Source of the DNA: a virus
Taxonomy: Duplodnaviria; Heunggongvirae; Uroviricota; Caudoviricetes
DNA length: 21,197 nucleotides
IMG/VR virus record: IMGVR_UViG_2713896790_000003
Reading direction: 5' to 3' (one strand)
Shown here: one piece after another, positions 1,771 through 17,732 of the stretch
Numbering within the stretch: the first letter of the stretch is position 1
Layout: every line of letters starts with the position of its first letter
The notes under the pieces: model-generated
Databases searched by the model: none
Seen by the model: the letters and a program-made list of their open reading frames with translations, nothing else
What the model was told of the DNA's origin: nothing
Position numbers and translations under genes: made by a program

Positions 1771-1962
1771 GAATCCTCCCGGGCGGGATAATGTTGTGAG
1801 TCAGATAAGGAGCAGGCTGAAGTCCGGAAGTTACAGGACAATGGCAGAAGGGAGACTACAGCCCGCAATTCGAAAAAGACCGCGCAGTTGCGCAGAGTGA
1901 TTACTATGGGGTATTATTCGCCAGCTGAAATATTACTTCACGTTTTATTGTTTATTCCTTGC

Positions 1963-1992
1963 CGCCCGCGTCTCCCAGCGCGGGCTTTTTTT
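1963..1992 (+). terminator. Putative rho-independent terminator, plus-strand orientation
   Basis: GC hairpin cccgcg-tctcccag-cgcggg followed by cttttttt on the plus strand; the minus-strand reading lacks a T-run. Confidence 0.4.
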
Positions 1993-2002
1993 GTCCATAA
2001 GA

Positions 2003-2236
2003 AAGCCCCTCCGGAGAGGGGCTAAAGCCGCGTATCTGTATCATCATGCACATGGTGCCGGGTGCCTCCCGGTGAGTTCAGTCCGGTGCCACTAAACCCG
2101 CGTCATTCTCGTTTTGATAATCAGAGATTATACCGTCACCAGTCGCCCCTCCGCTCAGGGGGATTCACCATGCGAAATTTTTTTAACAAATGCCCAGTCT
2201 GACAGGCAACTGTCAACTTACTGAATTGTGAGCAAC
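2003..2236. repeat. Copy 1 of a duplicated ~230-bp element at the stx-equivalent locus
   Basis: Shares with copy 2 the blocks aaagcccctccggagaggggct (8-bp stem hairpin), catggtgccgggtgcctcccggtga.ttcagt, cccctccgc.cagggggattcaccatgc, ttttaacaaa, tgtcaac and ctgaattgtgag in the same order. Confidence 0.7.
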
Positions 2237-2488
2237 ATAGCATTTAACGGGGAACCTGTTTTCTGCAGTAAAAAGGCCCACCGGAGCGGATGGGCCTGGA
2301 AGGATAGCGGTCATGTGATGCCGGTTTCCCGGTAACTCAGCACCGGTATCTGAGTCAACGTTTTCTCTACTGGGTCATTTCCGATACGCCCTGCCTGCTG
2401 ACAGGCTTTCATCACATCTGAAAATATAGCACCCTGACTGATACTGTAGTACCTAAGGTTCCAGAAACTGTGATGTATCCGGCACAGA

Positions 2489-2700
2489 AAAGCCCCTCCG
2501 GAGAGGGGCTGGAGAGTGGCGCTATGTGCCATTGCATGGTGCCGGGTGCCTCCCGGTGAATTCAGTACCAGCACCTGAATCCGCGATTATCCCATATACC
2601 TACTCGCTGATTGCCCCTCCGCACAGGGGGATTCACCATGCCAGTTTCTTTTAACAAACTCCCCGCAAACCAGACAACAGTCAACCGCCTGAATTGTGAG
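2489..2700. repeat. Copy 2 of the duplicated ~230-bp element, abutting the 3' side of the Arg(TCT) tRNA
   Basis: Same ordered sequence blocks as copy 1; roughly 75-85 percent identity by eye. On the minus strand the hairpin is followed by ttttct, so it may act as a terminator. Confidence 0.7.
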
Positions 2701-2745
2701 ACATTTAAAAAAAAGCCCGCAAAAGCGAGCCAGGGAAAATAAGTG

Positions 2746-2822
2746 TGGCGCGTTGTACTGGATTCGAACCAGTGACCGATTGCTTAGAAGGCAATTGCTC
2801 TGTCCGGCTGAGCTAACAACGC
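2746..2822 (-). tRNA. argO: tRNA-Arg (anticodon TCT)
   Basis: Minus-strand sequence GCGTTGTTAGCTCAGCCGGACAGAGCAATTGCCTTCTAAGCAATCGGTCACTGGTTCGAATCCAGTACAACGCGCCA folds as a canonical cloverleaf: acceptor GCGTTGT/ACAACGC, D-stem GCTC/GAGC, anticodon loop CTTCTAA, T-arm ACTGG-TTCGAAT-CCAGT, encoded CCA. Gene name by analogy with the 933W tRNA trio. Confidence 0.85.
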
Positions 2823-2835
2823 AGGATACAGATAA

Positions 2836-2912
2836 TGGACCGCCTTCGGGGACCCGAACTCCGCGCAACCAGCTTCGAAGGCTGGCGCTCTTTCCTGATG
2901 AGCTAATGGCGG
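2836..2912 (-). tRNA. argN: tRNA-Arg-like (anticodon TCG), atypical and possibly degenerate
   Basis: Minus-strand CCGCCATTAGCTCATCAGGAAAGAGCGCCAGCCTTCGAAGCTGGTTGCGCGGAGTTCGGGTCCCCGAAGGCGGTCCA: good D-arm and anticodon arm (CCAGC-CTTCGAA-GCTGG), but an A-A mismatch in the acceptor stem, an A-C mismatch in the T-stem and T-loop TTCGGGT lacking the usual A58. Exact 5' end uncertain by 1 nt. Confidence 0.55.
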
Positions 2913-2919
2913 TATGTGA

Positions 2920-2995
2920 TGGTGGCCCTTGCTGGATTTGAACCAGCGACCTGGCGATTATGAGTCGCTCGCTCTCACCACTGAGCTAAAGGGCC
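2920..2995 (-). tRNA. ileZ: tRNA-Ile2-like (anticodon CAT, lysidine type) or tRNA-Met
   Basis: Minus-strand GGCCCTTTAGCTCAGTGGTGAGAGCGAGCGACTCATAATCGCCAGGTCGCTGGTTCAAATCCAGCAAGGGCCACCA: canonical cloverleaf, anticodon loop CTCATAA, T-loop TTCAAAT, encoded CCA; closely resembles the E. coli ileX-type sequence as I recall it. Confidence 0.85.
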
Positions 2996-3044
2996 GGGAG
3001 CAGAATAATAATGGTGCGTAATTAATTCTGCAATCTCATCCGTT

Positions 3045-4094
3045 TCAAACGATTAAATCCTGAACTTCCCTGACTGTCTGCTCAAAACGTCCGGTCTCCA
3101 GTTCAACGCCAATCGCACGACGCCCGAGCGCCAGTGCCGCTTTTACCGTTGAACCTGAGCCCATAAAAAAATCTGCAACCAGGTCACCCGGACGACTGCT
3201 TGCGCTGATTATCTGCTGCAGCATTTCTGCCGGTTTTTCGCACGGATGTTTCCCGGGATAGAACTGCACCGGTTTATGTGTCCACACATCCGTGTACGGC
3301 ACCTGCGCCGTCACACCAAAATACCGCCGCAGATGCTTATATTCACTCTGCAGCTCCACATACTGCCGGTTCAGTGACGTATACGTATCCACCAGCTGGT
3401 GGTGGGGCTTTTCCAGTTCACCGCGCTGATGTTTCTCTTCTGCCACCCGGGCAAACAGCGACTGTAATTTCAGATAATCGCTTTCGTTCGGTAGCTGCCA
3501 CTGACTGGCACTGAACCAGTGCGACACCATGTTTTTCTTTCCTGTGGCATCTGCAATCTGTTTTGCCGTTATCCCCAGGGCCGCGCGCGCATCACGAAAG
3601 TAAGAAATCAGCGGGGCCATCACATGCTGTTTCAGTGCACTGCCCTTCGCCGCATACCCGGCATCTTTCGGACGATACGGCCCCTGATAATGTTCCGCGA
3701 ACAGAATGCGCTCTGTGGCGGGGAAATACGCCCGCAGGCTTTCCTTGTTGCATCCGTTCCAGCGTCCGGACGGCTTCGCCCAGATAATATGGTTCAGCAC
3801 ACTGAAGCGTTCACGCATCATGATTTCGATATCAGATGCCAGGCGATGACCACAGAACAGGTAAAGACTTCCGGCAGGTTTCAGCACCCGCCAGAACTGC
3901 GCCAGACACTGGTCCAGCCACTTCAGGTAATCATCGTCGCCCTTCCACTGGTTATCCCAGCCTTCAGGCTTCACTTTAAAGTACGGCGGGTCCGTGACTA
4001 TCAGGTCAACAGAATTTTCGGGTAACGACCGGATAAATTCCAGGCAGTCGGCGTTGATTAACTCACAACTGGATATTTTTACAGTATTAAGCAT
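3045..4094 (-). CDS. Orphan DNA methyltransferase (beta-class, N6-adenine or N4-cytosine)
   Basis: 349-aa ORF, ATG start; catalytic motif DPPY (IVTDPPYF) near the N-terminus and SAM-binding FFMGSGST near the C-terminus, the order typical of beta-class amino-methyltransferases. No adjacent restriction endonuclease gene. Confidence 0.85.
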   Translation of the reverse strand: MLNTVKISSCELINADCLEFIRSLPENSVDLIVTDPPYFKVKPEGWDNQWKGDDDYLKWLDQCLAQFWRVLKPAGSLYLFCGHRLASDIEIMMRERFSVLNHIIWAKPSGRWNGCNKESLRAYFPATERILFAEHYQGPYRPKDAGYAAKGSALKQHVMAPLISYFRDARAALGITAKQIADATGKKNMVSHWFSASQWQLPNESDYLKLQSLFARVAEEKHQRGELEKPHHQLVDTYTSLNRQYVELQSEYKHLRRYFGVTAQVPYTDVWTHKPVQFYPGKHPCEKPAEMLQQIISASSRPGDLVADFFMGSGSTVKAALALGRRAIGVELETGRFEQTVREVQDLIV

Positions 4095-4228
4095 GGATCA
4101 TTAAGCCTGTCTCTGATAGGCTCATTCTGCTTTTGCGCAAAGCAGTGGGCCTGAGGTTTGCTTGTGAACCCAACGCATGAGCAGATGGCTGGTGGGTGCC
4201 CCTAACACCCACCAGCCGCCCATTTACC

Positions 4229-4258
4229 ACAAATAAAAAAGCCTTCACTGCGGAAGGC
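4229..4258 (-). terminator. Rho-independent terminator (minus-strand)
   Basis: Hairpin gccttc-actgcg-gaaggc (4241-4258) with the plus-strand A-run 4232-4240 giving a U-run after the hairpin on the minus strand; overlaps the stop codon of the small ORF. Confidence 0.55.
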
Positions 4259-4442
4259 GTCTGTAACAACCGAACTGATAGTCTGCCAGACCCGCCATAA
4301 CCAGCTGGGTCAGTATTAACTGGCAGCGTTCGCGTGAAAGGTAAGTATTCTGCGCTATCTCCCCGACTGTCGCCGGTTCGGTAACGCTTAATTCATTAAA
4401 CACTACTCTGGCGGTTTCTGTCATATCCTGCTGTTTTAGCAT
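4245..4442 (-). CDS. Hypothetical small protein (65 aa) between two terminators downstream of Q
   Basis: ORF trimmed to internal ATG (MLKQQDMTETARVVF...) because the longer 94-aa frame would run over the upstream hairpin; purine-rich sequence before the ATG. May be leader sequence rather than a gene. Confidence 0.3.
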   Translation of the reverse strand: MLKQQDMTETARVVFNELSVTEPATVGEIAQNTYLSRERCQLILTQLVMAGLADYQFGCYRRLPQ

Positions 4443-4574
4443 GTCTTTTTCCCTTTCCCGGTTAACGTGACACACCAATAACTCTTGTCGAAAAAGCCAG
4501 CAAGCTGAAAGACAGGTATTCACCGCCACCAGCGCGTTTACTGTACTGACGCGATTTCAGTCATAAAAAACCCG

Positions 4575-4600
4575 CCAGGCGGCGGGGTGTAAAAAATCTT
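4575..4600 (-). terminator. Putative terminator or attenuator just downstream of the candidate late promoter (tR'-like)
   Basis: Hairpin ccccgccgcctggcggg followed on the minus strand by ttttttat. Confidence 0.4.
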
Positions 4601-4635
4601 CTAACGTCAGGCATAAAACGCCCATCGTTAGAGCA

Positions 4636-4663
4636 AATTTACCACAGATTCGGGAAAAATCAA
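4636..4663 (-). promoter_or_regulatory. Candidate late promoter (PR'-like) immediately after the Q-like gene
   Basis: Minus-strand TTGATT (4663-4658), 16-bp spacer, TAAATT (4641-4636). Placement after Q follows lambdoid architecture; the assignment is an inference. Confidence 0.3.
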
Positions 4664-4668
4664 CAACA

Positions 4669-5490
4669 CTATCGCGTTACCCTCTTTAACTGCCGCTCCG
4701 CCCATGCCTCTTCAATGTCAAACCGAACCACCAACGTATCGTAAAAGCGTTTCACTGATTTTTTCCACGTATCAAGCGTGATAGCACTCGTCACTTTGCA
4801 TATGGCATTAAATGCCTCCGTTGATGGTAGTCTTTCACAGCCACGACCACCACAACGCTGGCAGTCTCTGATAACAGGCATACCACGTTTTACCGACTCT
4901 TCACGATGAATGGCGACACCACGCCCACGGCAATCCTTACAGGCGGTGGAAACCTCACCCTTTCCGCCACACTCCGGACAGGCAACTTTTACCACCTCCC
5001 TGACTTTTTTCCATTCTTCCCAGTAAGACGGATACACACCTTTCGTACACTTTGCCCATACCGGCGGCTTACCATCCGGATACTGGATCTTGTTTGTAAA
5101 AACCTCGCTTTCAATAAATTTTTTTCCGTGACAGCAGGAGCACTGTTTTTTGCTCGCCGCGCTACGGGCATAATCTTCAAACGCATACGAAGCCATAATA
5201 CGCATCACTGCCGGTTTTATTTCTGCCGGGAGTTTTCTTAACGCCGCCACGCGATCACACCGCCTGAGTGCATATTCTGTCAGCAATTCTGTTGCCCGCT
5301 CTCTGTCATTCATACTAATGCCCATTTTCCCAAGGAACGCAGAAAACCCCATCTCAGCCCGATTCTGTGTCATGCCCTGCGCGGCCATCACATCAGTGAT
5401 ACTCAGCGCATCTTTCGACGTTGAGGCCGATGCATCAGTCAGGCCGGGGGATTTTGGGGAGTAGTATTTCGGTAAATCTTCCAGTTTCAT
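4669..5490 (-). CDS. Q-like late antiterminator candidate with DnaJ-type zinc-finger repeats
   Basis: 273-aa ORF with ATGA overlap to rusA; sits between rusA and the late promoter/tRNA region; three to four CxxCxGxG-type motifs (CPECGGKG, CKDCRGRG, CQRCGGRG). Family assignment rests on position plus Cys motifs, not on recognised sequence identity. Confidence 0.55.
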   Translation of the reverse strand: MKLEDLPKYYSPKSPGLTDASASTSKDALSITDVMAAQGMTQNRAEMGFSAFLGKMGISMNDRERATELLTEYALRRCDRVAALRKLPAEIKPAVMRIMASYAFEDYARSAASKKQCSCCHGKKFIESEVFTNKIQYPDGKPPVWAKCTKGVYPSYWEEWKKVREVVKVACPECGGKGEVSTACKDCRGRGVAIHREESVKRGMPVIRDCQRCGGRGCERLPSTEAFNAICKVTSAITLDTWKKSVKRFYDTLVVRFDIEEAWAERQLKRVTR

Positions 5491-5861
5491 TTTTTGACCT
5501 GCCCTTCAAGCATTATGGGGTAAATCTTCACCCCCAGACGTCCACCAGATACTGGCTGACCACGAACGATATTGATTTCATCAAACTGCTCATCGTCCAT
5601 TAACACTCCCGCATGCGTCAGCGCATCCAGCGGTGCTTTCAGGATATTGTCCAGGTCGCGACGACGCTTATCCGGTGGCTCTGCAATCACCTTTATCGCC
5701 AGCCTTCCGGACAGGCTTAATTTCAGCCGCTGCTGGCGAACAATAAGCGCCACAGCCCGGCGATAACGCTTTCCCTCCTCCGAGATAAAATATGTGCTGC
5801 CACGGCGTCGCCAGTAAGTGTTCACCGTCGGCGGGTAAGGTAAAACCAAATCTATGAGCAT
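5487..5861 (-). CDS. rusA: Holliday junction resolvase RusA
   Basis: 124-aa ORF MLIDLVLPYPPTVNTYWRRRG...RRRDLDNILKAPLDALTHAGVLMDDEQ, matching the conserved RusA pattern (PPxxN.Y, RRDLDN, DALT). Confidence 0.85.
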   Translation of the reverse strand: MLIDLVLPYPPTVNTYWRRRGSTYFISEEGKRYRRAVALIVRQQRLKLSLSGRLAIKVIAEPPDKRRRDLDNILKAPLDALTHAGVLMDDEQFDEINIVRGQPVSGGRLGVKIYPIMLEGQVKK

Positions 5862-5873
5862 CAGTCACCTCTT

Positions 5874-6920
5874 TTACCCAAGCACGCCAGTTGCAAAGGC
5901 GTGATCAAGAAAACGAAAAATTAAATCAACCTGAGAACCATGCTTTTCTTCGAACGCCAGCGGATCCGCATGAAGCTCGTTGTGATGCTCCCGACACAGC
6001 GGTAGCGTGAAAATATCGTGAGATTTTGTCCCCATTCCGCCCTGACCATGACCAATCAGGTGATGGGGATCGTCGGCTGGCTTACCACAACACGCACACG
6101 GCTGTGTCTTCACCCAGCGTGTGTATTTCTCGTTAACCCAGCGGCGACGTTTAGGTCGTTTCATGAAAGATTCCGGAGACTCAGGATCAACGGCAATGCT
6201 GACCACCGTCTCTTCCTGTGGCGGGTTTTGCTGGTGGGCGTGAGGCAGCGGCGCAAGATTTTTTGTGCGCTGCTTCAGTATGCTGGTGGCGGTCTGCTCT
6301 CCCGGTACGATGTCGCTTTCACGGTACATTGAGCGGATTTTTTCCGCACGCAACCCCAGCGAACGACGTAATACCGCTTCCGGTAGCGCGTCCGCCACCT
6401 GATTGCGGACCGCCCACCAGGATAATTCAGCCAGCGATAATTCCCGTTCCTGCGAGCCATTCATTGCATGGCGTATGACGTCAATCATCCATGCAGACAG
6501 GTTTTGGTGAGCAAGTTGCCCGAGTGATTCGGAGGTCTGGTCGCGCAGCTGGTTGTCGCAGTGCCAGCACAACACCATTGCGCCGGTACCATAACGGTGA
6601 ATGACGGTTTCACTGTGGTGATAATCGCCGTGTGGCCACTGGCAGGATTTAACATGGCGCAGTAACCAATCAGACAATGCGCCAGCGCCACCAGCAGCAC
6701 GAATCACTCGTTCGTCGCTGAAAAATGGCAGTAATGATTTATCCTCCGCCAGCGGCTGGCGAACGGCAGGAACGACCCCGGACGGCAGATTACGCATGCT
6801 TTTCGGTTCCGGCTCCACCAGTACCCGGGTATTGTGGAATACCGGCATGGATTCACGGCCCAGCTTAACGATCACCAGCCCGAGTTCCGGTACCAGAACA
6901 GGTCGAAGTAATACCCGCAC
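5874..6920 (-). CDS. DUF968-like prophage protein (YdfU-like) with C-terminal Cys/His cluster
   Basis: 348-aa ORF (GTG start; an internal ATG at 6848 is an alternative). C-terminus CACCGKPADDPHHLIGHGQGGMGTKSHDIFTLPLCREHHNELH resembles an HNH/zinc-binding motif. Same size and position as Qin YdfU as I recall it. Confidence 0.65.
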   Translation of the reverse strand: MRVLLRPVLVPELGLVIVKLGRESMPVFHNTRVLVEPEPKSMRNLPSGVVPAVRQPLAEDKSLLPFFSDERVIRAAGGAGALSDWLLRHVKSCQWPHGDYHHSETVIHRYGTGAMVLCWHCDNQLRDQTSESLGQLAHQNLSAWMIDVIRHAMNGSQERELSLAELSWWAVRNQVADALPEAVLRRSLGLRAEKIRSMYRESDIVPGEQTATSILKQRTKNLAPLPHAHQQNPPQEETVVSIAVDPESPESFMKRPKRRRWVNEKYTRWVKTQPCACCGKPADDPHHLIGHGQGGMGTKSHDIFTLPLCREHHNELHADPLAFEEKHGSQVDLIFRFLDHAFATGVLG

Positions 6921-6921
6921 G

Positions 6922-7195
6922 TTACCTCCAGATGCGTTGCTGGAATGTGCGGGACGGACGCGGTGGGCGTTCGGAATAAGGGAGTCTGACGTAGATTATC
7001 CAGTGACGATAATCGAGGGTGAGGGCTTTCCTAAACTCATATCCACGTCTGCGGTAGTTATGAATCAGCCATTCGGCCTGTTCTTCAGTACAGGGATCGT
7101 GCTGATACCAGTCATATTTGAATGCGTGAGAACGCCACCCGTGCCTGCTGGCAAAGGCAGAATCAGAATTGCGAAATTTGAAATTATGCGCCATT
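6922..7195 (-). CDS. Hypothetical small protein (90 aa), in the position rem occupies in Qin
   Basis: ORF MAHNFKFRNSDSAFASRHGW...; GGAG 6 nt before the chosen ATG; stop is 1 nt from the DUF968 start. Confidence 0.5.
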
Positions 7196-7253
7196 GTCAT
7201 CTCCAATGGCGCTGCAGGTTGCCAGTTGTTCAGGCTGGCTCACGTATTATAAC

Positions 7254-7475
7254 TTATTCCCGAACTACCTTGAAACCGAGTCTTTCCAAGTATTCAATGA
7301 ATGCCTCAACAGATAACACTACATGATCATCAGGAATTAACGCTGTGTAGGTAATACCCCCATTCTCAACGCGCACAGCATAGAGGCCATCTTCACTAAA
7401 AATTTCACGTAATTCTTCGATTTTCATCAACAGAATCCTTCCAGATAAATAGCACTCCCCCTGTTCGGGGTCCAT
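7254..7475 (-). CDS. Hypothetical small protein (73 aa, or 57 aa from ATG at 7427)
   Basis: Open frame with two candidate ATG starts; co-directional with the operon. No recognisable domain. Confidence 0.4.
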   Translation of the reverse strand: MDPEQGECYLSGRILLMKIEELREIFSEDGLYAVRVENGGITYTALIPDDHVVLSVEAFIEYLERLGFKVVRE

Positions 7476-7548
7476 CCCTCTTCTCCCTGCGCGCTACTTA
7501 AGTATTTTTGATTCTATTCTGGCACCGTCCAAAACTTCAAACACGTTG

Positions 7549-7579
7549 AAAATAAAAACAAAAAACCCGCCGAAGCGGG
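7549..7579 (-). terminator. Rho-independent terminator ending the two-gene cassette
   Basis: Hairpin cccgccgaagcggg (7566-7579) followed on the minus strand by ttttttgttttt; lies 6 nt past the stop of the HTH-peptidase gene. Confidence 0.7.
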
Positions 7580-7584
7580 TATAC

Positions 7585-8688
7585 TCAAACAATCTGGAAA
7601 ATATTTCTTGGATTTGTAATAGGTCTGTTGATGGAGAACAACTCACGAATTAAATCTTGGCTCAAGCCAGTTTTCATAAGAATTCTTAGCCAGGTTGCAT
7701 CATCCAGCATTTCAATCGCCTCGGCCAGCATGCCGGGTTCTTCAGGGCGCAAAAGTTCATCACCAGGTTCAACTCTCGTATACCCTCTGGAATTAAGATG
7801 CATATAGCCAGTTCTTGCCTGTTCCTGGGTCAATAAGCCTAATGCGCTGGCTCGATAAATACACATTTTAAGGCTGATTTTCCATCTAAGTTTAAATTCA
7901 ACCAGAGCATTCCAGTCGAATTGCTTACCTCGTATTCGTGGAAATTCTTTAATGAAAGATAACCTGGGAACTAATAAGGCGCTCGAAAAGTGATCGGCTT
8001 GTGATTCCGTAAGTTTATCACCTGTCGTTATGCCCTCATGCATTACTAAATGCCCTAATTCATGACCTAAATCAGAGCGAAATCTACATATGCTTTTTTT
8101 AACATTGTTCCTGATGATAACAGGCCTGTTATTGTGAACAGTAAAAGCATCAACACGATCATCGACTCCCGTAACATGCGCAACGATTACCCCTAAACTC
8201 TCCGCCAATTTAACCATTGATGATATAGGGCCAAGACCTAAATTCCAGGCACGGCGACAATCTTCTGCCACTCGCTCAATATCATTCGGAGTAAGTAATT
8301 CAGCCCCTGGGTGCTCCGGTATGTTAACGTCAGGAAATTCGATTTCACCTTCAACAGCAGAAATTATAATATTAAGAATCTCAGCCCTGGCCAATACACT
8401 ATTAGTCAGCGTTTGAGTCCTGGACTTCTTACTCCGAAAATGGCAGACATCACTTTCCAGAGCGTATTTTCGTTCAGTAAAAAGAAAACTGGACTTAATC
8501 ATAAGCGCTGAAGATATTAACTCAAGACATTGCTCCGATGGCCTGCACCCCTTCTCCAGTTTGCTAACGAATTGCTTTGTCTTGCCAATTTTTTCGGCTA
8601 ACTCTTCACAAGAAAGCCCAACAGCCATTCTCGCTAGTTTGAGCTTATCACCCCGATACTCAGTGAAGTTATTCACCTGATGTTCCAT
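7585..8688 (-). CDS. Fused XRE-family HTH / ImmA-IrrE (M78-type) zinc metallopeptidase
   Basis: 367-aa ORF from ATG at 8688 (track start is a GTG one codon upstream). N-terminal HTH LSCEELAEKIGKTKQFVSKLEKG; central HEXXH motif in SDLGHELGHLVMHEG; about 100 extra C-terminal residues. Overlaps the upstream gene by 20 nt. Confidence 0.85.
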   Translation of the reverse strand: MEHQVNNFTEYRGDKLKLARMAVGLSCEELAEKIGKTKQFVSKLEKGCRPSEQCLELISSALMIKSSFLFTERKYALESDVCHFRSKKSRTQTLTNSVLARAEILNIIISAVEGEIEFPDVNIPEHPGAELLTPNDIERVAEDCRRAWNLGLGPISSMVKLAESLGVIVAHVTGVDDRVDAFTVHNNRPVIIRNNVKKSICRFRSDLGHELGHLVMHEGITTGDKLTESQADHFSSALLVPRLSFIKEFPRIRGKQFDWNALVEFKLRWKISLKMCIYRASALGLLTQEQARTGYMHLNSRGYTRVEPGDELLRPEEPGMLAEAIEMLDDATWLRILMKTGLSQDLIRELFSINRPITNPRNIFQIV

Positions 8689-9319
8689 CACTGCTCACAT
8701 CCAAATCTTTATCCTTCGTACGCCGACGAAGAGGCACCTTATTAATCTCCGCTTCGTCAGGGAGTGTGTTATAATCAAGAGGCATAAGCGGCATCGATGC
8801 TGTAGATTGATGAGAAACTATACTAATCTGAGCACCATAAGTATTAAATCCAACAAGAGCTACCTCCCAACGAGGCAGTGTGGACTCTAATTCACCATCG
8901 CCCTCTTCGGATAAAAAAGGCTCAGCTATGACTCGCCATGTAATATCTTGCTCAGCCTCAACATCACCAAACAATGAGAGCTGCTCATACTCTACTTTAT
9001 TTCGACGCAGACGATGTTTCTTTTTGGGGTTATTAATGCAATCTTTGGTAAATTGTAGCGGAACTTTATTTAAAGCAACTACATAGTCCAACCCCTTGGA
9101 AATCATCTCAAGGCCAGGAATTGCATCTTCATTTTGAATAAGATGATTTCTGACCCAATCATAAGCCCTTACACCTTCAGACCAGTTGCTGTCTAATGCG
9201 TGCTTATGATAGTACAGCTGCTCAAGTACGTTAGCGATCTCCGCCAACAAGTGGCGAACATAGTTTTCAGCAAGATAAGGTTGAAATTCCCAACAAGGAG
9301 CTAACTGATTTTCATTCAT
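8669..9319 (-). CDS. Hypothetical protein (216 aa), first gene of the cassette, no recognisable domain
   Basis: ATG-initiated ORF MNENQLAPCWEFQPYLAENYVRHLL...; acidic, no HTH, no transmembrane segment, no catalytic motif I can identify; weak Shine-Dalgarno. Confidence 0.7.
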   Translation of the reverse strand: MNENQLAPCWEFQPYLAENYVRHLLAEIANVLEQLYYHKHALDSNWSEGVRAYDWVRNHLIQNEDAIPGLEMISKGLDYVVALNKVPLQFTKDCINNPKKKHRLRRNKVEYEQLSLFGDVEAEQDITWRVIAEPFLSEEGDGELESTLPRWEVALVGFNTYGAQISIVSHQSTASMPLMPLDYNTLPDEAEINKVPLRRRTKDKDLDVSSDGTSGE

Positions 9320-9354
9320 TTCAAGTTTCGCTTTTTTTAGAATTCGTAAACCAC

Positions 9355-9383
9355 ATATTTTCGCATTTTTCTATTTTTGTCAA
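9355..9383 (-). promoter_or_regulatory. Putative promoter of the two-gene cassette
   Basis: Perfect -35 TTGACA (9383-9378) on the minus strand, about 60 bp upstream of the 216-aa ATG; the -10 is only moderate (AAATAT or GAAAAT). Confidence 0.35.
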
Positions 9384-9390
9384 CCAGACT

Positions 9391-9416
9391 AATGCAAAAA
9401 CCCGCCGAAGCGGGTT
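9391..9416 (-). terminator. Rho-independent terminator downstream of hokD, insulating the cassette
   Basis: Hairpin cccgccgaagcggg (9401-9414) followed on the minus strand by tttttgcatt; same stem-loop sequence as the terminator at 7566-7579. Confidence 0.6.
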
Positions 9417-9484
9417 AAGTGCGGGTGCGTTGAGGATGCCTGGCACATCAGAGGTGGCGGGAGATTACTCCCCCGCCGGGTCTC

Positions 9485-9640
9485 TTACTCCTCAGGTTCG
9501 TAAGCTGTGAAGACAGCGACCTCCGTCTGGCCGGTTCGGATTCGTACCTCGCAGAGGTCTTTCCTCGTTACCAGTGCCGTCACNATGACGGTTAAACAGA
9601 TGACGATCAGGGCGATTANCATCGCCTTTTGCTGCTTCAT
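9485..9640 (-). CDS. hokD: Hok/Gef-family type I membrane toxin, HokD (RelF)-like
   Basis: 51 codons MKQQKAMxIALIVICLTVxVTALVTRKDLCEVRIRTGQTEVAVFTAYEPEE with RBS AAGGAGAAG; matches E. coli HokD as I recall it. Two codons contain ambiguous bases (n at 9584 and 9599). The 70-aa track ORF is an in-frame upstream extension. Confidence 0.8.
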   Translation of the reverse strand: MKQQKAMXIALIVICLTVXVTALVTRKDLCEVRIRTGQTEVAVFTAYEPEE

Positions 9641-9841
9641 AGCCTGCTTCTCCTTGCCTTTCGGCACGTAAGAGGCTAACCTACGTGTGTAGAGCATAGA
9701 TATGGCCTCAGATTAATGTTAAGCGTCTTGCCGGACGCGTAATGTTAACTGGGGCTTTTCTCTATCTGCCTTTTGGTGTTCATGCCTGAGACAGATAGCC
9801 TCAAGCACCCGCTGCAATTCTACTTAACTCTCCTTTTCCCG

Positions 9842-9925
9842 CAAACCGTTTTTATCCCCAGCGGCAAATCGAATACACCACCAGCGCCACCGCCATCGCA
9901 ATTCCTACCGTTGTTAATGCTTCAG
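9842..9925 (-). CDS. Possible small hydrophobic peptide (27 aa)
   Basis: [27 protein letters not shown]; its ATG overlaps the stop of the upstream 114-aa gene (ATGA). Below the ORF-track size cutoff. Confidence 0.3.
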
Positions 9926-9931
9926 GCCAGG

Positions 9932-10276
9932 TCATCGTAAAATATCCTCCACGCTTATCAGTCCGTTCCGCTCCAGATAACTCATCGCCTTATCCGGTAA
10001 TTTGCAGTCTGGCTTCGCTTTCCTCAGTTGCCAGGTTAACTGCTTTACCAGCATGGTTAACTCATCGACCAGACGCTGATATCCCACTGGTTTGTATTCA
10101 TGCAATTTACCGGCTGGCTCTGCTGCCAGCGATACCAGTGCGATTTCCAGAACAGCAATATCCATCTTATATGTGCGGATGATGTCATGGTCGATTGTGC
10201 CCGGTATGCACAGTCTCTGTGCTTCAATAGTCTCCTCTGCGTGAGCTATTAACTGCTCTCTGGTAAAAGTCGTCAT
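9932..10276 (-). CDS. Hypothetical protein (114 aa)
   Basis: ATG start overlapping the stop of the upstream 55-aa gene (ATGA); N-terminus [12 protein letters not shown] resembles that of the neighbouring 55-aa ORF. Confidence 0.55.
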
Positions 10277-10440
10277 GCCGTAGCCCCTTCTTGATATTTT
10301 TCAAACCAGAACACAACCGGCTCTGCTTCCAGCGATGCCAGCGCAATCCGTGCCAGTTCCATTTGTTCACCACGGGTAAGCCCGTTTTCAAGCGGGTTTT
10401 TAATGAACAATTCAATACGTTCTTTGGTAATAGTGGTCAT
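10273..10440 (-). CDS. Hypothetical small protein (55 aa)
   Basis: [20 protein letters not shown]...; strong RBS TAAGGAGT 5 nt upstream of the ATG; below the ORF-track cutoff. Confidence 0.5.
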
Positions 10441-10450
10441 GTGTTACTCC

Positions 10451-10714
10451 TTAACCCGCAGTGCTTTCAACTGATGAGGGGAACAAAATCTTTTCATCAA
10501 ACCCTGCATTCATATCATGGACAGCAACACACCAATCCATTGACGAACGATTATCAAGAGCCTCCATGATTTCATCCATGCGGCGCAGGTCATACAGGTA
10601 AATGCTTTTATCGCCAATGGTGTAAAAACCAATTTTTTTCGGTGATGGACAGCGATCAAGAACGTCCTGTAATTCGTTCAACCATGCCTGTTCTTTTTTT
10701 GTCAAAGTTGCCAT
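10451..10714 (-). CDS. Hypothetical protein (87 aa)
   Basis: Trimmed to ATG at 10714 (MATLTKKEQAWLNELQ...) with RBS AGGAAAA; the longer track ORF would overlap the upstream gene. Confidence 0.5.
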   Translation of the reverse strand: MATLTKKEQAWLNELQDVLDRCPSPKKIGFYTIGDKSIYLYDLRRMDEIMEALDNRSSMDWCVAVHDMNAGFDEKILFPSSVESTAG

Positions 10715-10715
10715 A

Positions 10716-10934
10716 TCAGTTTTCCTTATACGGATTAATTTTATTGTGCAGTGTGTTGAACGGAGCCCATACCACGTCGTTATACAATTCAATAACTGGC
10801 TCAATTATTTTTCCGATTCCCCATACCAGAATTAACGGGGATATCGGTATCATCAACACGATAAACAGAATGAGAAACAAAAATTCTGTCGCTCTACTTT
10901 TTCGCGGATATTCTTTTCTGAATAATGTAGGCAC
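10716..10934 (-). CDS. Hypothetical small membrane protein (72 aa)
   Basis: GTG start preceded by AAAGGAGAG; hydrophobic stretch FLFLILFIVLMIPISPLILVWGIG. Confidence 0.5.
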   Translation of the reverse strand: MPTLFRKEYPRKSRATEFLFLILFIVLMIPISPLILVWGIGKIIEPVIELYNDVVWAPFNTLHNKINPYKEN

Positions 10935-10935
10935 A

Positions 10936-11151
10936 TCACTCTCCTTTGTTGCTCCTCAAAATTTTATGCCCTGGCGCAAAAGCACGCGTTTTGTCGGCAC
11001 TTATTCGCCACCCATCTTTACGTGCCTCTTTTGCACAGCCAGCCCATGACGTACCGATATACTCACCAAAATCTGGCGACTGATATTTGCCATCCGTACA
11101 CTGGCGGCAATCACAATAGAGATGCATGGTATAACTTGCGGCAATACCCAT
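10936..11151 (-). CDS. Hypothetical Cys-rich small protein (71 aa)
   Basis: ATG start with strong RBS AAAGGAGG; motif CDCRQC...C suggests metal binding. Confidence 0.5.
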   Translation of the reverse strand: MGIAASYTMHLYCDCRQCTDGKYQSPDFGEYIGTSWAGCAKEARKDGWRISADKTRAFAPGHKILRSNKGE

Positions 11152-11511
11152 TCAGCCTCCTTTGATGCCCGTGTTTACAACCAGGCAGGCCTCCTTGAGT
11201 ACCCAGTCAATAGCGTCTTTCCATGCTCCGGTTTCAACTGGCGGATCCTCACGCCGTACCTGTTCATAAAAGCGCACAGCTTTAACCAGTCCTTCTGATG
11301 TCACCGAAGCTGGCGGGGCCGTGAATAACGCCTGAATTTCATAGTTTGGTCTGTCGTTACAATCCTCTTTTGTCGGGACATATTTCCAGTCACCAACCCA
11401 CTGCTTCCCCTGAAAGTCTGTAACGCCTTTTTTCACGTAGCGATATCGCCATGCCACTGGTTTTGCCTGCCCTACCTTTTCATGCCCTTCCTGATAATTA
11501 ATCTCGCTCAT
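11152..11511 (-). CDS. Hypothetical protein (119 aa)
   Basis: ATG start overlapping the stop of the upstream 58-aa ORF (ATGA). Confidence 0.55.
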   Translation of the reverse strand: MSEINYQEGHEKVGQAKPVAWRYRYVKKGVTDFQGKQWVGDWKYVPTKEDCNDRPNYEIQALFTAPPASVTSEGLVKAVRFYEQVRREDPPVETGAWKDAIDWVLKEACLVVNTGIKGG

Positions 11512-11684
11512 TCATCGCCCCACTCATCACAATATGCTTCGACCGGTGTTTTCCCTGCTTCATAATCATCACGCCATGCTTCAGCATCAGCGGCACTTCC
11601 ACCGCGTAACTCTGCATAATCCATTAACAGTTCATGCCATTCTTCAAAACTGGCGTTATATTTAGTTGAACCAAAATCAGCCAT
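11511..11684 (-). CDS. Hypothetical small acidic protein (58 aa)
   Basis: MADFGSTKYNASFEEWHELLMDYAELRGG...; coupled at both ends to neighbouring ORFs; below the ORF-track cutoff. Confidence 0.4.
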
Positions 11685-11859
11685 TTTGTTCTTCCTCTTC
11701 GTCTTTTATTTCGTGGTATGAGTAATTGCAGTAGTTAAAGAAAATATCTTTAGCTTCATCCTGTATTTCATCTGGTGTTGCATCATCATCCACTTCGAAT
11801 TCATCCTCGAAATCTCCACCGGCTATTCCCGTTTCAATAATTATTTTGAATTTTCGCAT
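11677..11859 (-). CDS. Hypothetical small acidic protein (60 aa)
   Basis: ATG-initiated ORF, highly acidic (DFEDEFEVDDD...EEEEQNG); 8-nt overlap with the downstream ORF. Confidence 0.45.
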   Translation of the reverse strand: MRKFKIIIETGIAGGDFEDEFEVDDDATPDEIQDEAKDIFFNYCNYSYHEIKDEEEEQNG

Positions 11860-11954
11860 TTCACTACCGCCCTTTCGGACGGCCTCCTGATGTTCTGAGG
11901 GTGCAGAAATCCCTCCGGTTAAGGATTTGATTTTATTTACAGTGCTAAATTTAA

Positions 11955-12311
11955 TTATTCAGTTCTGGATTTTGTCGCCCTGCATATCCGCGCTTTCGCG
12001 TTACGCTCAATCTGAATTAACTTTTCTATATTTTTCCGCCTTTCCTGTTCCTCCTGGCGCAATAGCCTTACATCATCTGCCAGTCTGGTTTCTCTTTTCG
12101 CCACAGAGAGCATCCAGTCAAACGGCTCCACAACTGCACCGCAGATTTTACAGCGGACCTGACGCTCTTTTTCGTCAACCCGAACAGAGGCGTGATGACA
12201 ATATGGTCTTTCCGATGGCTCATAAAGAAAATTAACCTGATTACGAGGGTCATCCTCTTTTACCGGAAATAAAACGATATTGCTTAACTCATCCTCTGGT
12301 TTTATTTCCAT
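11955..12311 (-). CDS. Hypothetical protein (118 aa) with possible zinc-ribbon
   Basis: ATG start; CHH...CKIC motif; 23-nt overlap with the upstream gene. Confidence 0.5.
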   Translation of the reverse strand: MEIKPEDELSNIVLFPVKEDDPRNQVNFLYEPSERPYCHHASVRVDEKERQVRCKICGAVVEPFDWMLSVAKRETRLADDVRLLRQEEQERRKNIEKLIQIERNAKARICRATKSRTE

Positions 12312-12750
12312 GCTCCTCTCCTTTGATGCGAATGCCAGCGACGCGTAATGCGTGTTCTAAGTCAATCAGGTAAAGCCAACTGCCATTTTCTTTAGGTATC
12401 ATGACATGTCGCTCATCTGCATTTATCGGGTGTCCATATCGAAGGTCGTAGCGAGTCGGTAATTGAACTTCCCGCGCTTCCAGTTCAGCAATACGCTTGC
12501 TCCCATCAGAGATAACGCCTTCGTAATACTCACGCTGCTCTTTGAGTTGTGATTTTGCTTCTTCCAGTCCATCCAGCAAATCAGCGATAATATCCGCTTC
12601 CCGATGACGGATGTGACGCTTAAACGCAGCAAGAGCCGCATCACAATCCCGTTCAGCATTTGGGCTGTCCGGGATAGCCTGATACCACGCCAGCGTCGAC
12701 TGATAGTTTTGTGCTGCCTCACGAAGCGCCTCATAGTTAACCTCTCTCAT
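12289..12750 (-). CDS. Hypothetical protein (153 aa)
   Basis: ATG start overlapping the DUF4406 stop (ATGA). Confidence 0.55.
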   Translation of the reverse strand: MREVNYEALREAAQNYQSTLAWYQAIPDSPNAERDCDAALAAFKRHIRHREADIIADLLDGLEEAKSQLKEQREYYEGVISDGSKRIAELEAREVQLPTRYDLRYGHPINADERHVMIPKENGSWLYLIDLEHALRVAGIRIKGEEHGNKTRG

Positions 12751-13043
12751 TGAGCCACCTCCTGATAAATCACTGCATGCCCCAGTTTCTCCGCCAGTGC
12801 CAGCTCTGCCTTAGCGCCCGCTGACCGCTGCCAGCCATTCAGCATGTAAATCGCATCCACACAACGAATCATTGCCATGCAAATATCCATGTAGTGCGGC
12901 TGTGTCAGCCCGTCCGGAAGTACTGCCGGGTTTAAGACGGTATGCCCTTCCCGTTTCAGTTCCTCTTCCGCCTTGTGAAACGCCTCACGGTTGAAATTTT
13001 CATATCCCGTCATTGGACCGGCAATATAAACTCTGACCCTCAC
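12747..13043 (-). CDS. DUF4406-like protein (nucleoside 2-deoxyribosyltransferase-like fold)
   Basis: 99 aa from a GTG start preceded by AGGAGG; VRVYIAGPMTG...NREAF...GHTVLNPA...W..SAGAKAELALAEKLG matches the DUF4406 pattern as I recall it. Confidence 0.65.
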   Translation of the reverse strand: MRVRVYIAGPMTGYENFNREAFHKAEEELKREGHTVLNPAVLPDGLTQPHYMDICMAMIRCVDAIYMLNGWQRSAGAKAELALAEKLGHAVIYQEVAQ

Positions 13044-13432
13044 TCCATCACCTCCTGAAAGTTTCCCCGATAGAACGCCAGCACACGCTGCATAACTTCG
13101 CTCTGGCGGCACTCACGACAAATTATGTTCTGCCGTCTGTTGTAACGACGTATTTCTCCGTCAGGTAACTTTCGAATCAGTGTCGGGTCAGCAGCCTTCT
13201 CCGGTGTCTTACGCCATACGCGATACGCCTGCTCTGATGGAAATACCCCGCAACCAGAGAGCCAGACATCACCACTGGCCGCAAGCGCACCAGATAAACG
13301 ACGAATAGCGGTCTTACTGACACCCGTTTTATCTGCCAGTTGTCGAAAAGTTTCTCGTCCGCTCAGGCGCACGAATTCCACAATGCGCGCCTTCACTTCT
13401 TCCCGCTCTTCTGGTGTAAATACTTTTGCCAT
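13040..13432 (-). CDS. Hypothetical HTH-containing protein (130 aa)
   Basis: ATG at 13432 preceded by GGAGG (the track start at 13447 is TTG); HTH-like LADKTGVSKTAIRRL; C-terminal CRECRQ. Confidence 0.5.
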   Translation of the reverse strand: MAKVFTPEEREEVKARIVEFVRLSGRETFRQLADKTGVSKTAIRRLSGALAASGDVWLSGCGVFPSEQAYRVWRKTPEKAADPTLIRKLPDGEIRRYNRRQNIICRECRQSEVMQRVLAFYRGNFQEVME

Positions 13433-13447
13433 AAGCGCCTCCGGCAA

Positions 13448-14218
13448 TCACTTTTCCGATACAACACGGCGGGAAGAATCAGTAATCTGTCGAACAATAT
13501 CCCGGTGCTTGTTCACCTCCCGCAGCGCGGCGCAGACTCGCTCCCACTTCTGAACATCACTTTTCGCCCTGCGCAGCGCCAGGTTTGCCCTGCGAAGGGA
13601 CGGAAAAATCAGCTCATCTGCTTGCGTTTCGGTAAACGATGGCAACGGCTGCACAATGTCCGCCACAGTTTCTGTTTTAATTTCTTCCTGTGTTGCGGCT
13701 TCCCGGACTGGTAACGCAGCACCTGCTGGCTGAGGAAAGGCCTTACCATCACTTTCCGTTACCAGCGCGGCTTTCGGCTCTGCTGGTAAATTATCGCCCG
13801 GCATGCAGTAACGAAATTTATCGTTCTGATTAACGCGTGCCAGCCGCCCCGTTGCGGTTACCACCGCCAGCGTGGAGGCAACCTTGCGAGTACTGACGCC
13901 GAACTTACCCGCCAGTTCCTCACACGTTTTAGCACCATCCTGACCGATAAACTCAATCATCATGTCTGCGGTAACTTTTTGTTCGACCTCCCCGGTCAGC
14001 ATATCCTGTGCTTCAGATTTTACTGGCCGCTCTTCGGTTACCCGGGATTCACCTTCGCCAGCCAGAAACCAGGTGTGACCAGTTTTATCAACGACGCCAT
14101 TTCTTTTGAGTTCCCACAGCTCGTTGAGAACCTCTTCACGACTGATATCAAGTCGCGCGGCCAGTTCTACCGATGTGGCTTTTCCCATTGCTTTCAGTGC
14201 GTCAAATACGGTTTCCAT
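13448..14218 (-). CDS. Hypothetical protein (257 aa) with two winged-helix-like segments
   Basis: ATG at 14218 preceded by GGAGG (track start is TTG); two similar segments ([17 protein letters not shown] and [17 protein letters not shown]). Confidence 0.55.
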
Positions 14219-14251
14219 TAAAATTTCCTCCGACAAAATCGTTTCTCAGAT

Positions 14252-14917
14252 TCAAATAAAACCAGCTGCCTTCCGGCGTTCGTATTCCTGTTTCAGCCGT
14301 TCAATTGGCGTTGGCCCTTGCGGGTGTTTCGCCCCTTCCAGTTGTCGTCGCACTGGCGGAACACTCATCCCGTTACCAACATGCTTTGCCCATTTCGTCA
14401 GTTGCCGTTCCGCAAGTCGTTTTAACTCACCCTGCGTCATCTGGCGCTCAATCCCTCTGGTACGCATTTCGAGGCAGATGTGGTACAGCACAGGCTGAGG
14501 CCACGGATATTTGTCGCTTCCGTCATATCGCCAGGATTCATCACGCCAGCGGCGGTACTCCTCCATCACAGCATCCACCGTCAGGCCAAATGGATTGGCC
14601 CCGCTTTCTGAAATCAGCGCCACAAACTCAGCCAGGTCCGGAGGCCATGTTTCACCCGCCCGGCAGCGGTCCATGCACTGGCGGCAGACCTGTCGGATTT
14701 GCTGCTCAGTCATCGCGCCAATCTGTGCAATCCAGAGCTTCGAAGGTGCGGCCCCGTTCTTCTGGGTCCAGCGGTTCGAATAAACCTCCCCCATGAGTTC
14801 CCACAGCTTCCAGACCGTTTCCGTCGCTGATAAATCCGTTTTCACGTTCCCACTGCTCACGTGCTGCCCGAATTTCCTGAACTGCCCGTGATGCGGTGCC
14901 ACCTGGTGCTGCTGCAT
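14252..14917 (-). CDS. Lambda P-like replication protein (helicase loader); start uncertain
   Basis: C-terminal two-thirds align by eye with lambda P (YPWPQPVLYHICLEMR... against YPWKSNAHYWLVTNLYQ..., FVAL against FVAW). Frame is open back to ATG 14917 (RBS AAGGGGG), overlapping the O-like 3' end by 212 nt; alternative starts at 14794 and 14713. Confidence 0.6.
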   Translation of the reverse strand: MQQHQVAPHHGQFRKFGQHVSSGNVKTDLSATETVWKLWELMGEVYSNRWTQKNGAAPSKLWIAQIGAMTEQQIRQVCRQCMDRCRAGETWPPDLAEFVALISESGANPFGLTVDAVMEEYRRWRDESWRYDGSDKYPWPQPVLYHICLEMRTRGIERQMTQGELKRLAERQLTKWAKHVGNGMSVPPVRRQLEGAKHPQGPTPIERLKQEYERRKAAGFI

Positions 14918-15752
14918 GGTTTACCCCCTTGCTGACTGGCTTAACCTGCGCCCTGACGTGATTTACGTGACGGGCGAATTTCTGCTCCCACTGAACCTGC
15001 GTGAAAACTTTCCCCTCCGCTGCCCAGTAGTCCCGGAAAGCGGCAAGTTCAGCAGGTGTAAATTCCGGCTCCGGCAAAGCCATCCCCCACAACGCAGCCC
15101 GTCGTCGAAAATCCGGCGACGGATGCCAGTCATCGACCATCGGAAATTTCCCGATGGGTTCGCTCAGTCCATCCAGGGATGCAGGTTCTGCTGCCTGCAA
15201 CGGCGTACCACTCGACTCACTGGTCGGAGCACTCTCGCGCACGTGCGCGTTATGTGTGGGGTTTAATTCTTTATCTGTATCTTTATCTGTCGTGACTCGT
15301 CGTGACATGTCGTGACATATGCGTGACTCGTCGTGACACCCCTCATTCTGTTTTCGTAATTTTTCCCTCTCGCGCTGCGCTCTCTTGCGCTCTGCCGGGG
15401 ATTTCGCGGTTTGTGAAACGTTGCCATTGTCCTCTTTCAGTACCTGGCGTTTTTCCCATCCGGTGATTAAATCTCCATCAAGTACCCGCCCCTGCATTGC
15501 CTGTAAAATTGAATCAATTACTTCTTCCGTCACATCAAGCGCACTTGCTAAATCTTCCGTCGTGACATCAATGTGACCACGTAGTGACACGCCGTGACAT
15601 GTCGTGACATTTCGTGACGCGCTCACCAGAAGGTGGATATACACTGCCATCACTGTTGCAATTGGCTGCCCTGACACCCTGGCAATTGTTCGCCACTTAG
15701 GGTCATTTGGCATGTCATGCCATAATCTGAGCCAGGCGTTAGCCATACTCAC
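14706..15752 (-). CDS. Replisome organiser (lambda O-like) replication initiator
   Basis: 348-aa ORF; N-terminus MANAWLRLWHDMPNDPKWRTIAR resembles the replisome-organiser N-terminal domain; lies between a cII-position gene and the P-like gene; contains iteron arrays. Confidence 0.65.
   Translation of the reverse strand: MSMANAWLRLWHDMPNDPKWRTIARVSGQPIATVMAVYIHLLVSASRNVTTCHGVSLRGHIDVTTEDLASALDVTEEVIDSILQAMQGRVLDGDLITGWEKRQVLKEDNGNVSQTAKSPAERKRAQREREKLRKQNEGCHDESRICHDMSRRVTTDKDTDKELNPTHNAHVRESAPTSESSGTPLQAAEPASLDGLSEPIGKFPMVDDWHPSPDFRRRAALWGMALPEPEFTPAELAAFRDYWAAEGKVFTQVQWEQKFARHVNHVRAQVKPVSKGVNHAAAPGGTASRAVQEIRAAREQWERENGFISDGNGLEAVGTHGGGLFEPLDPEERGRTFEALDCTDWRDD
15291..15340. repeat. Iteron array 1 (putative origin), five ~10-bp direct repeats of consensus GTCGTGACAT
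   Basis: cgtgac recurs at 15291, 15301, 15311, 15322 and 15332; flanked by the AT-rich tract tttaattctttatctgtatctttatctgt (15262-15290); inside the O-like gene. Confidence 0.55.
15563..15620. repeat. Iteron array 2, six ~10-bp direct repeats of the same GTGAC-core motif
   Basis: gtgac recurs at 15563, 15574, 15584, 15594, 15604 and 15614, within the N-terminal coding part of the O-like gene. Confidence 0.5.
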
Positions 15753-15817
15753 CTCTTCTGATACCGAATCTTTTTACTCACAAATTGCCGGAAGTGATCC
15801 GGTATGAATATTGCGAG

Positions 15818-16502: not shown

Positions 16503-16508
16503 AGCCAA

Positions 16509-16609
16509 CCTTCTACGTTATGCCTCGAGCAAATATTAGCCCCGCTAATTTTAAAGATCAATAGCCAGACTATCTTTGATAATATTGGTAAAACAAATAA
16601 ACTCTATGT
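16509..16609. promoter_or_regulatory. Divergent promoter/operator region between the Cro-like and repressor genes
   Basis: AT-rich 100-bp intergenic region with inverted repeats (ttagc-ccc-gctaa at 16536-16548; atcaa...ttgat near 16558-16585). Confidence 0.5.
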
Positions 16610-17071: not shown

Positions 17072-17096
17072 CCACCGCTCACTACCCCATCCACAA

Positions 17097-17710: not shown

Positions 17711-17732
17711 TAGCTAACCAACGAGGCTAATA

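Follow-up and report, generated by a model that had tools for sequence, protein, structure and literature searches.

The window analyzed here, meaning the whole 21,197-nt stretch of DNA in the IMG/VR virus record IMGVR_UViG_2713896790_000003 (Caudoviricetes), carries beside its hokD gene a two-gene cassette that very probably constitutes a RosmerTA-type toxin-antitoxin or defense module, with a toxin gene, rmrT, followed by an antitoxin gene, rmrA. The explanation we favor is that this cassette is a RosmerTA moron in which RmrA holds RmrT in check and RmrT docks on the beta sliding clamp (DnaN) through a QLSLF motif, and we assign this explanation as a whole a probability of roughly 0.8, although the docking step taken alone is rated at less than even. 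A preliminary description of the cassette had proposed a toxin-antitoxin module formed by an uncharacterized toxin and a fused helix-turn-helix (HTH)/peptidase protein. The kind of system was recognized correctly and can now be named, but "uncharacterized" does not hold for the kind, which has been named and catalogued as RosmerTA since 2022. The cassette itself is thus ordinary, and the newly raised lead is a conserved clamp-binding motif in a RosmerTA toxin.

Both cassette genes lie on the minus strand and, with the domains of RmrA, have the following positions in the window.

8669..9319, minus strand: rmrT, 216-aa toxin component (open reading frame list, PADLOC RmrT model PDLC03929 and PHROG 5786)
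7585..8688, minus strand: rmrA, 367-aa antitoxin with an XRE-type HTH, a zinc peptidase M78 domain (ImmA/IrrE type) and a C-terminal extension
8503..8643, minus strand: HTH_3 domain of RmrA, residues 16-62 (domain match; PDB matches to SinR and 434 repressor)
7846..8163, minus strand: Peptidase_M78 domain of RmrA, residues 176-281 (domain match)
8050-8064, minus strand: HELGH zinc site of RmrA, residues 209-213 (the HEXXH within the M78 domain)

The two overlapping reading frames of 216 and 367 aa that the preliminary description had reported, sharing 20 nt, were recovered in the open reading frame list and in RefSeq, where Escherichia coli ABU 83972 has the identical two coding sequences with the identical overlap. 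RmrA has 367 aa if it starts at the ATG and 368 aa if it starts at a GTG at 8691. The domain matches likewise bear out the earlier reading of the second protein as an XRE-type HTH joined to a HELGH site, and the first protein was indeed without a recognizable motif in Pfam and NCBIfam, neither of which matched RmrT or its 58 relatives described below. Plus-strand reading frames within the cassette are short (59-68 aa), and an Rfam scan found no family within the cassette.

Both proteins matched models of the RosmerTA system. The 216-aa protein matched PDLC03929 with an E value of 4.6e-25 (residues 7-209 on positions 5-195 of the 198-residue model), and the 367-aa protein matched the PADLOC RmrA model PDLC03943 with an E value of 6.2e-105 over 340 residues, as well as 13 other RmrA models, with weak matches to capP (1.6e-14) and capH (1.5e-4). 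Due to these matches, standard defense annotation would name the cassette RosmerTA. RefSeq lists the pair as "hypothetical protein" and "helix-turn-helix domain-containing protein," the latter appearing in newer records as "ImmA/IrrE family metallo-endopeptidase." Furthermore, an alignment of 301 residues with the RmrA of E. coli OLC-716, which has been verified experimentally and whose sequence was taken from Table S2 of Millman et al., showed 29% identity (E 2e-35), and the NCBIfam spr1629 model matched RmrA with an E value of 1.5e-45, below the cut-off of that model. By sequence search, no solved structure was found for RmrT or RmrA except for the HTH part. Judged by its sequence, the cassette has every feature by which RosmerTA is recognized.

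RosmerTA was described as a Zn-peptidase antitoxin with a toxin of unknown function, and a ΔrmrA mutant of the OLC-716 system was not transformable, possibly through toxicity (Millman 2022, bioRxiv 10.1101/2022.05.11.491447). Phage defense has been shown for two RosmerTA systems, those of OLC-716 (Millman 2022) and phage Kita (Ernits et al. 2023). RmrA is a hub antitoxin partnered by many different toxins, and the RmrT of phage Kita depolarizes membranes (Ernits et al. 2023). The OLC-716 system resembles the cassette in having the toxin gene first and then the gene of an antitoxin of ~370 aa with an XRE-type HTH and a Zn peptidase, and differs in that its RmrT comes from another family, whereas the window cassette is prophage-borne.

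The cassette is a self-contained prophage moron of ~1.83 kb with its own promoter and terminator. Its control elements and edges are as follows.

9355..9383, minus strand: cassette promoter, read from the sequence (-35 TTGACA at 9383-9378, spacer of 17 nt, -10 AAATAT at 9360-9355)
9326..9386, minus strand: two imperfect 28-nt direct repeats (TGGTTnAC...GCGAAA), 33 nt apart, conserved and spanning promoter and leader
9396..9415, minus strand: hokD terminator hairpin, the upstream copy of a 20-nt repeat and left insertion edge (single copy at the empty site of PhiR42_1)
7561..7580, minus strand: rho-independent terminator of the cassette, the downstream copy of the 20-nt repeat and right insertion edge (hairpin call and repeat)

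In PhiR42_1 and other Qin-like phages, the gene order is relB-relE-hok-rem-ydfU-Q, and the sequences that flank the cassette in the window are adjacent to each other with a single copy of the terminator. The insertion in the window is therefore precise and measures 1,815 bp, to which a second copy of the 20-nt terminator is added, and the insertion point lies exactly at the hokD terminator. Terminator-like sites were called on the minus strand at 9416-9399 and 7580-7565. The hairpins noticed earlier on both sides of the cassette thus exist and in fact belong to a perfect 20-nt direct repeat, AAAAACCCGCCGAAGCGGGT, at 7561-7580 and 9396-9415, with no such repeat expected by chance (100 shuffles). 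We assigned the copy at 7561..7580 to the cassette because the same hairpin lies 3' of rmrA at about 6750-6780 in another locus (L008), a tail-gene context without hok. Since the hokD and cassette terminators share 20 nt and the hairpin also occurs in L008, an origin by recombination at the hairpin is conceivable, and the insertion may have arisen in this way rather than with a target-site duplication.

At the other end of the unit, the stretch from TGGTTGACA to the ATG was kept in 6/6 cassettes (that of the window and five others with unrelated upstream DNA), and the upstream similarity among cassettes in unrelated contexts starts exactly at TGGTTGACA and extends as far as the start codon. 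Because this similarity begins at TGGTTGACA, the promoter is supported and the left end of the unit is defined. The perfect TTGACA -35 element claimed for this promoter is present; the -10 element is weak, agreeing with consensus at 3/6 positions, and a consensus promoter scan left the promoter uncalled. The 28-nt repeats are a plausible candidate operator for the HTH of RmrA. We searched for a LexA box at the cassette promoter and found none, and the earlier idea that DNA damage might act on the 9355-9383 promoter is therefore without support in the sequence. Perfect CTGT-N8-ACAG sites occur at 8126-8141, inside rmrA, and at 7078-7093, in the left flank, and LexA-box-like sites with at most one mismatch numbered 8 against 6 expected, which is the level of chance. 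With no LexA box at the promoter and the other matches at this level, SOS control of the cassette was rejected.

The two genes stay together. Of 5,426 complete E. coli genomes, 236 carry the cassette, mostly at ≥99% identity, including ABU 83972 and NCTC86, and each of the 237 E. coli records in which any part of the cassette was detected contains 80% or more of it, so that rmrT and rmrA never occur singly in complete E. coli genomes. A toxin gene followed by an HTH-M78 gene was found in 11/11 distinct genomic contexts, which comprised E. coli, Xenorhabdus, Serratia, Enterobacter, metagenome contigs, and four divergent family members; these four members are 22-29% identical to the window RmrT, and each has a gene for HTH plus M78 directly downstream. 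The sole disrupted copy, at 1790-3349 of L017 (E. coli FDAARGOS_1249), carries IS5 in rmrT, leaving a truncated 140-aa reading frame and an intact rmrA, which is the pattern expected if only loss of the toxin is safe. The type strain of Escherichia albertii, NBRC 107761 (L018), encodes a toxin 100% identical to the window RmrT, and among 185,579 species representatives the close-family patterns matched only in E. albertii and one Xenorhabdus genome. In INPHARED phage genomes, we detected neither the cassette nor a toxin homologue. Two E. coli plasmid deposits, NZ_AP026904.1 (237 kb) and CP088590.1 (175 kb), both non-mobilizable, carry the cassette at 99.5% protein identity; these records may be phage-plasmids or misassigned contigs.

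The unit occupies different slots in different prophages: the nin region in E. coli, Xenorhabdus, and Enterobacter; the interval between Q and holin in Serratia; the tail module between tape-measure and minor-tail genes in L008; and a position after a DUF927 primase gene. The swappable accessory slot suspected in the preliminary description is supported by the empty-site allele of Qin-like phages. Its questions of whether the two genes are co-conserved and whether they visit defense hotspots elsewhere are answered by the 11 contexts and 237 E. coli records, by the classic accessory prophage slots, and by L014, where a distant RmrT/RmrA pair (region 1085-8606) has as neighbors a Fic protein, Multi_ubiq/ThiF genes, and a pair made up of a HigB-like and an HTH-M78 gene, in surroundings that look like a defense island. 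Distant family members in L013 and L015 adjoin integrase and resolvase genes.

Directly upstream, the gene adjoining the cassette is hokD as had been stated (HOK_GEF, E 2.5e-22), with sok RNA (RF01794, 117 bits), in the region 9485-9810; hokD holds two N bases (9584 and 9619). A Qin-like neighborhood of relBE and hokD had been expected. The hokD part of this expectation stood, but no relBE was found in this prophage, although it is present in the Qin-like PhiR42_1. The cassette was also correctly described as richer in AT than its flanks, with a GC content of 0.415 vs 0.499 in the remaining window, below all other sampled 1815-bp windows. Further AT-rich patches of the prophage (GC 0.40-0.44) at 10250-11000 and 16250-18250 may be additional accessory genes. 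Positions 17465-17514 consist of N only (50 bases), which probably marks a gap in the assembly or masking, and 2708-17464 of the window is 99.2% identical to the prophage of E. coli ABU 83972.

RmrT belongs to a defined protein family. Searching 1.8 billion representatives with a profile yielded 65 RmrT relatives, nearly all of 195-225 aa, of which 58 full-length representatives were used for the family analyses, and 58/58 matched PDLC03929. Named members, all annotated as hypothetical, come from Enterobacterales, Aeromonas, Vibrio, Photobacterium, Shewanella, Pseudomonas, and Pseudovibrio, and plasmid-borne relatives come from Alpha- and Betaproteobacteria. RmrT is an acidic (pI 4.9), soluble protein that lacks transmembrane segments and is therefore unlike the membrane-depolarizing RmrT of phage Kita.

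A different mode of action is suggested by residues Q113 to F117 of RmrT.

8969..8983, minus strand: codons for Q113-L-S-L-F117, a match to the consensus beta-sliding-clamp-binding motif in the predicted flexible segment that joins strands 3 and 4

The bacterial clamp motif is Q-phi-x-[L/M]-[F/L] or Q-phi-x-[L/M]-x-[F/L], with QLxLF and QLxLxF as the tightest binders, usually acidic flanks, a location in tails or internal loops, and a small affinity cost for replacement of Q by N (PMC11139829). The QLSLF of RmrT equals the high-affinity consensus QLxLF and has acidic flanks, residues 110-125 reading EYE-QLSLF-GDVEAEQD; the candidate clamp-motif peptide is EYEQLSLFGDVE. At the aligned site, the 58 representatives have QLSLF, QMTLF, QLTLF, QLPLF, QLSLPL, QLSLAF, QMSLEL, and similar sequences. 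The motif is strictly canonical in 31/58, with the high-affinity form in 16. Outside the aligned site, the motif matched only twice in 12,060 residues, and a match at any position was seen in 4.6% of shuffled sequences. The changes tolerated at the site are motif-like, with Q fixed, the third position free, L or M in the fourth, F or L at the end, a switch between five- and six-residue forms, and small indels. E110, Q113, and L116 are within the dozen most conserved columns of RmrT, and the segment was disordered in a first structural model and of lowered confidence in a second. We take DnaN to be a possible target of the window RmrT, a proposal from sequence that we rate at somewhat below an even chance.

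A motif of the same type is present in the verified RmrT of OLC-716, which has QLKLDL at residues 143-148. Its 21 relatives have one aligned site, occupied in Enterobacterales by QL-x-L-D-L forms and in the Vibrio, Shewanella, and Photobacterium members by NLDLF; 10/21 of these motifs are canonical and 19/21 are when N is allowed for Q and F at position four. Two unrelated RmrT families with such a motif, consistent with what is known of the toxin RipA, raise the broader and still more tentative idea that RosmerTA toxins of Proteobacteria are sliding-clamp poisons.

RipA belongs to RipAB (Spr1630/Spr1629), a Rosmer-family toxin-antitoxin system of Streptococcus pneumoniae with an antitoxin of the same architecture as RmrA. 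The DnaN substitutions that suppress the lethality of RipA cluster in the hydrophobic pocket through which DnaN binds proteins, these substitutions also abolish two-hybrid interaction with RipA, antitoxin action depends on ClpX, and the role of RipAB is in competence induction (PMC12795458). The DnaN pocket on which RipA acts is the site that QLSLF would bind, and PMC12795458 names no motif. RipAB differs from the cassette in being Gram-positive, chromosomal, and involved in competence, with ClpX dependence shown for RipAB only, and the toxins were compared by description only. In MGIVmi1 of Vibrio mimicus, a 198-aa domainless toxin, Vmi480, is followed by a 362-aa HTH plus Zn-peptidase antitoxin, Vmi470; Vmi480 is lethal in E. 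coli, and Vmi470 could not be deleted alone (PMC4671572). The length of Vmi480, 198, equals that of the PADLOC RmrT model, and membership in the same toxin family is a lead only, by description. The family members beside integrase and resolvase genes in L013 and L015 resemble such a mobilizable genomic island. A prophage toxin-antitoxin module of this architecture in E. coli E101 makes clpP essential (Rousset et al., bioRxiv 10.1101/2020.05.25.114553). This module shares the HTH-Zn-peptidase architecture, and membership of its toxin in the family is again a lead only, by description. SocAB of Caulobacter crescentus is a type VI toxin-antitoxin system in which the toxin blocks replication via the clamp pocket and is restrained through ClpXP. 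Its logic is the one proposed for RmrT/RmrA, but there is no sequence relationship, and SocA is a small adaptor whereas RmrA is an HTH-peptidase fusion. PD-lambda-2, an E. coli defense system of three genes, has an XRE-peptidase fusion with a HigB-like partner, and the fusion itself is toxic (Vassallo et al. 2022, PMC9519451). It is like the cassette in its XRE-peptidase fusion, and a similar HigB-like plus HTH-M78 pair stands beside the family member in L014, whereas its HigB-like partner, its third component, and the toxicity of its peptidase fusion set it apart.

In the explanation we favor, a single sigma-70 promoter would give a bicistronic rmrT-rmrA mRNA ended by the terminator, and due to the 20-nt overlap of the genes, toxin and antitoxin would be made together. 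RmrA would be the antidote, with its XRE-type HTH probably repressing its own promoter at the 28-nt repeats and its zinc peptidase or C-terminal domain keeping RmrT harmless, possibly by cleavage or by hand-off to ClpXP. An infecting phage would upset this balance and free RmrT, so that the cell would be stopped before the phage cycle completes. Freed RmrT would dock via QLSLF in the hydrophobic pocket of DnaN and block replication of both host and phage DNA, and its restriction-endonuclease-like core may contribute DNA binding or cutting. Family membership, operon architecture, the ends of the unit, the co-conservation of its genes, and the presence and conservation of the motif are established directly here, while toxicity of RmrT, the antidote role of RmrA, and the ability of the system to abort infection would follow by analogy with RosmerTA and its relatives.

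Several points weigh against this explanation. A literature search found no experiment on the cassette or on its RmrT family. The window RmrT showed no BLASTP similarity to the verified OLC-716 RmrT, and hhalign gave a probability of 1.5%; homology of the two families was thus supported neither by BLASTP nor by profile-profile comparison. Such a difference fits RosmerTA, because RmrA is a hub antitoxin with many toxins, but RosmerTA toxins vary in mechanism, and defense and mechanism are therefore not simply transferable. With respect to the motif, 27/58 family members are near-canonical and lack the strictly canonical form, and the conserved E-x-x-Q-x-x-L overlaps in part with a helix predicted at residues 108-115, so that it could be structural rather than a linear docking motif. 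Conservation among homologues is also not independent evidence. Finally, the -10 element of the promoter is weak, as noted above, and we regard the operator assignment as guesswork.

The predicted structure of RmrT bears on the strongest of three other explanations, in which RmrT is a nuclease toxin with a PD-(D/E)xK fold that kills by cutting DNA, with QLSLF being incidental or a tether to the fork. A model built from 14 close sequences was poor (predicted local distance difference test [pLDDT] of 61), while the 58-sequence alignment gave a model with a pLDDT of 85 and a predicted template modeling score of 0.75. Fold comparison of the model returned weak restriction-endonuclease-like matches, with inositol-monophosphatase folds scoring equally, and Foldseek of the model against PDB returned nothing significant. 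A canonical PD-(D/E)xK active site, with its catalytic residues on strands 2 and 3, was sought but not found, as positions 78 and 89-92 are variable among the family members. The polar residues that the family keeps are D43, R51, Y53, E110, Q113, R129, and E133, with the acidic residues D43, E110, and E133 in place of canonical catalytic positions. The nuclease fold is thus a lead from modeling, with membership in the PD-(D/E)xK superfamily not established, and we consider killing by DNA cutting unlikely.

Somewhat less likely still is that the pair mainly serves as an addiction module, stabilizing the prophage by post-segregational killing like hok/sok, with no useful protection against phages. 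The cassette adjoins hokD/sok, with relBE alongside in Qin-like phages, Vmi480/Vmi470 and the E101 module were first reported simply as toxin-antitoxin systems, and RipAB acts physiologically in competence and not in defense. However, the RosmerTA systems of OLC-716 and phage Kita defend against phages, and the moron moves among classic prophage accessory slots, with the L014 copy in an apparent defense island. Addiction and defense are compatible roles for the pair and do not exclude each other.

In ImmR/ImmA of ICEBs1, DdrO/IrrE of Deinococcus, and CapH/CapP of CBASS, the repressor and peptidase are two distinct proteins, and cleavage of the former by the latter turns on other genes. These systems likewise partner an XRE-type HTH with a COG2856/M78 HEXXH metallopeptidase, but in RmrA both functions are fused and partnered with a toxin. 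We consider it highly improbable that the 367-aa protein is an ImmR/ImmA- or CapH/CapP-like switch for prophage genes after DNA damage, with the 216-aa protein as a nontoxic accessory or substrate: although the HTH plus M78 architecture is common to those systems and capP and capH gave weak matches, RmrA models matched far more strongly (E 6e-105 vs 1.6e-14), terminators insulate the unit on both sides, the whole unit moves among unrelated slots and therefore has no fixed downstream target gene, the promoter has no LexA box, and relatives of the same architecture (OLC-716 and Vmi480/Vmi470) are lethal when the second gene is missing. The fusion of the two functions, the insulation of the unit, and its pairing with a toxin mean that the cassette is not a switch of the ImmR/ImmA or CapH/CapP type.

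For annotation, the gain from identifying the cassette as RosmerTA is small, with the RefSeq "hypothetical protein" and HTH entries in 236 E. coli genomes becoming rmrT/rmrA. As a biological unit, the cassette illustrates a defense moron cleanly: its ends are defined, an allele with the empty site exists, and copies lie in four different slots of prophages. The conserved clamp-type motif in two toxin families provides a testable idea about the route of killing and the phages that are stopped, and, if correct, it would link scattered observations on the essentiality of clpP/clpX and the action of RipA on DnaN. RosmerTA would then halt phages by shutting down clamp-dependent replication, with the HTH-peptidase antitoxin, perhaps together with ClpXP, as the guard.

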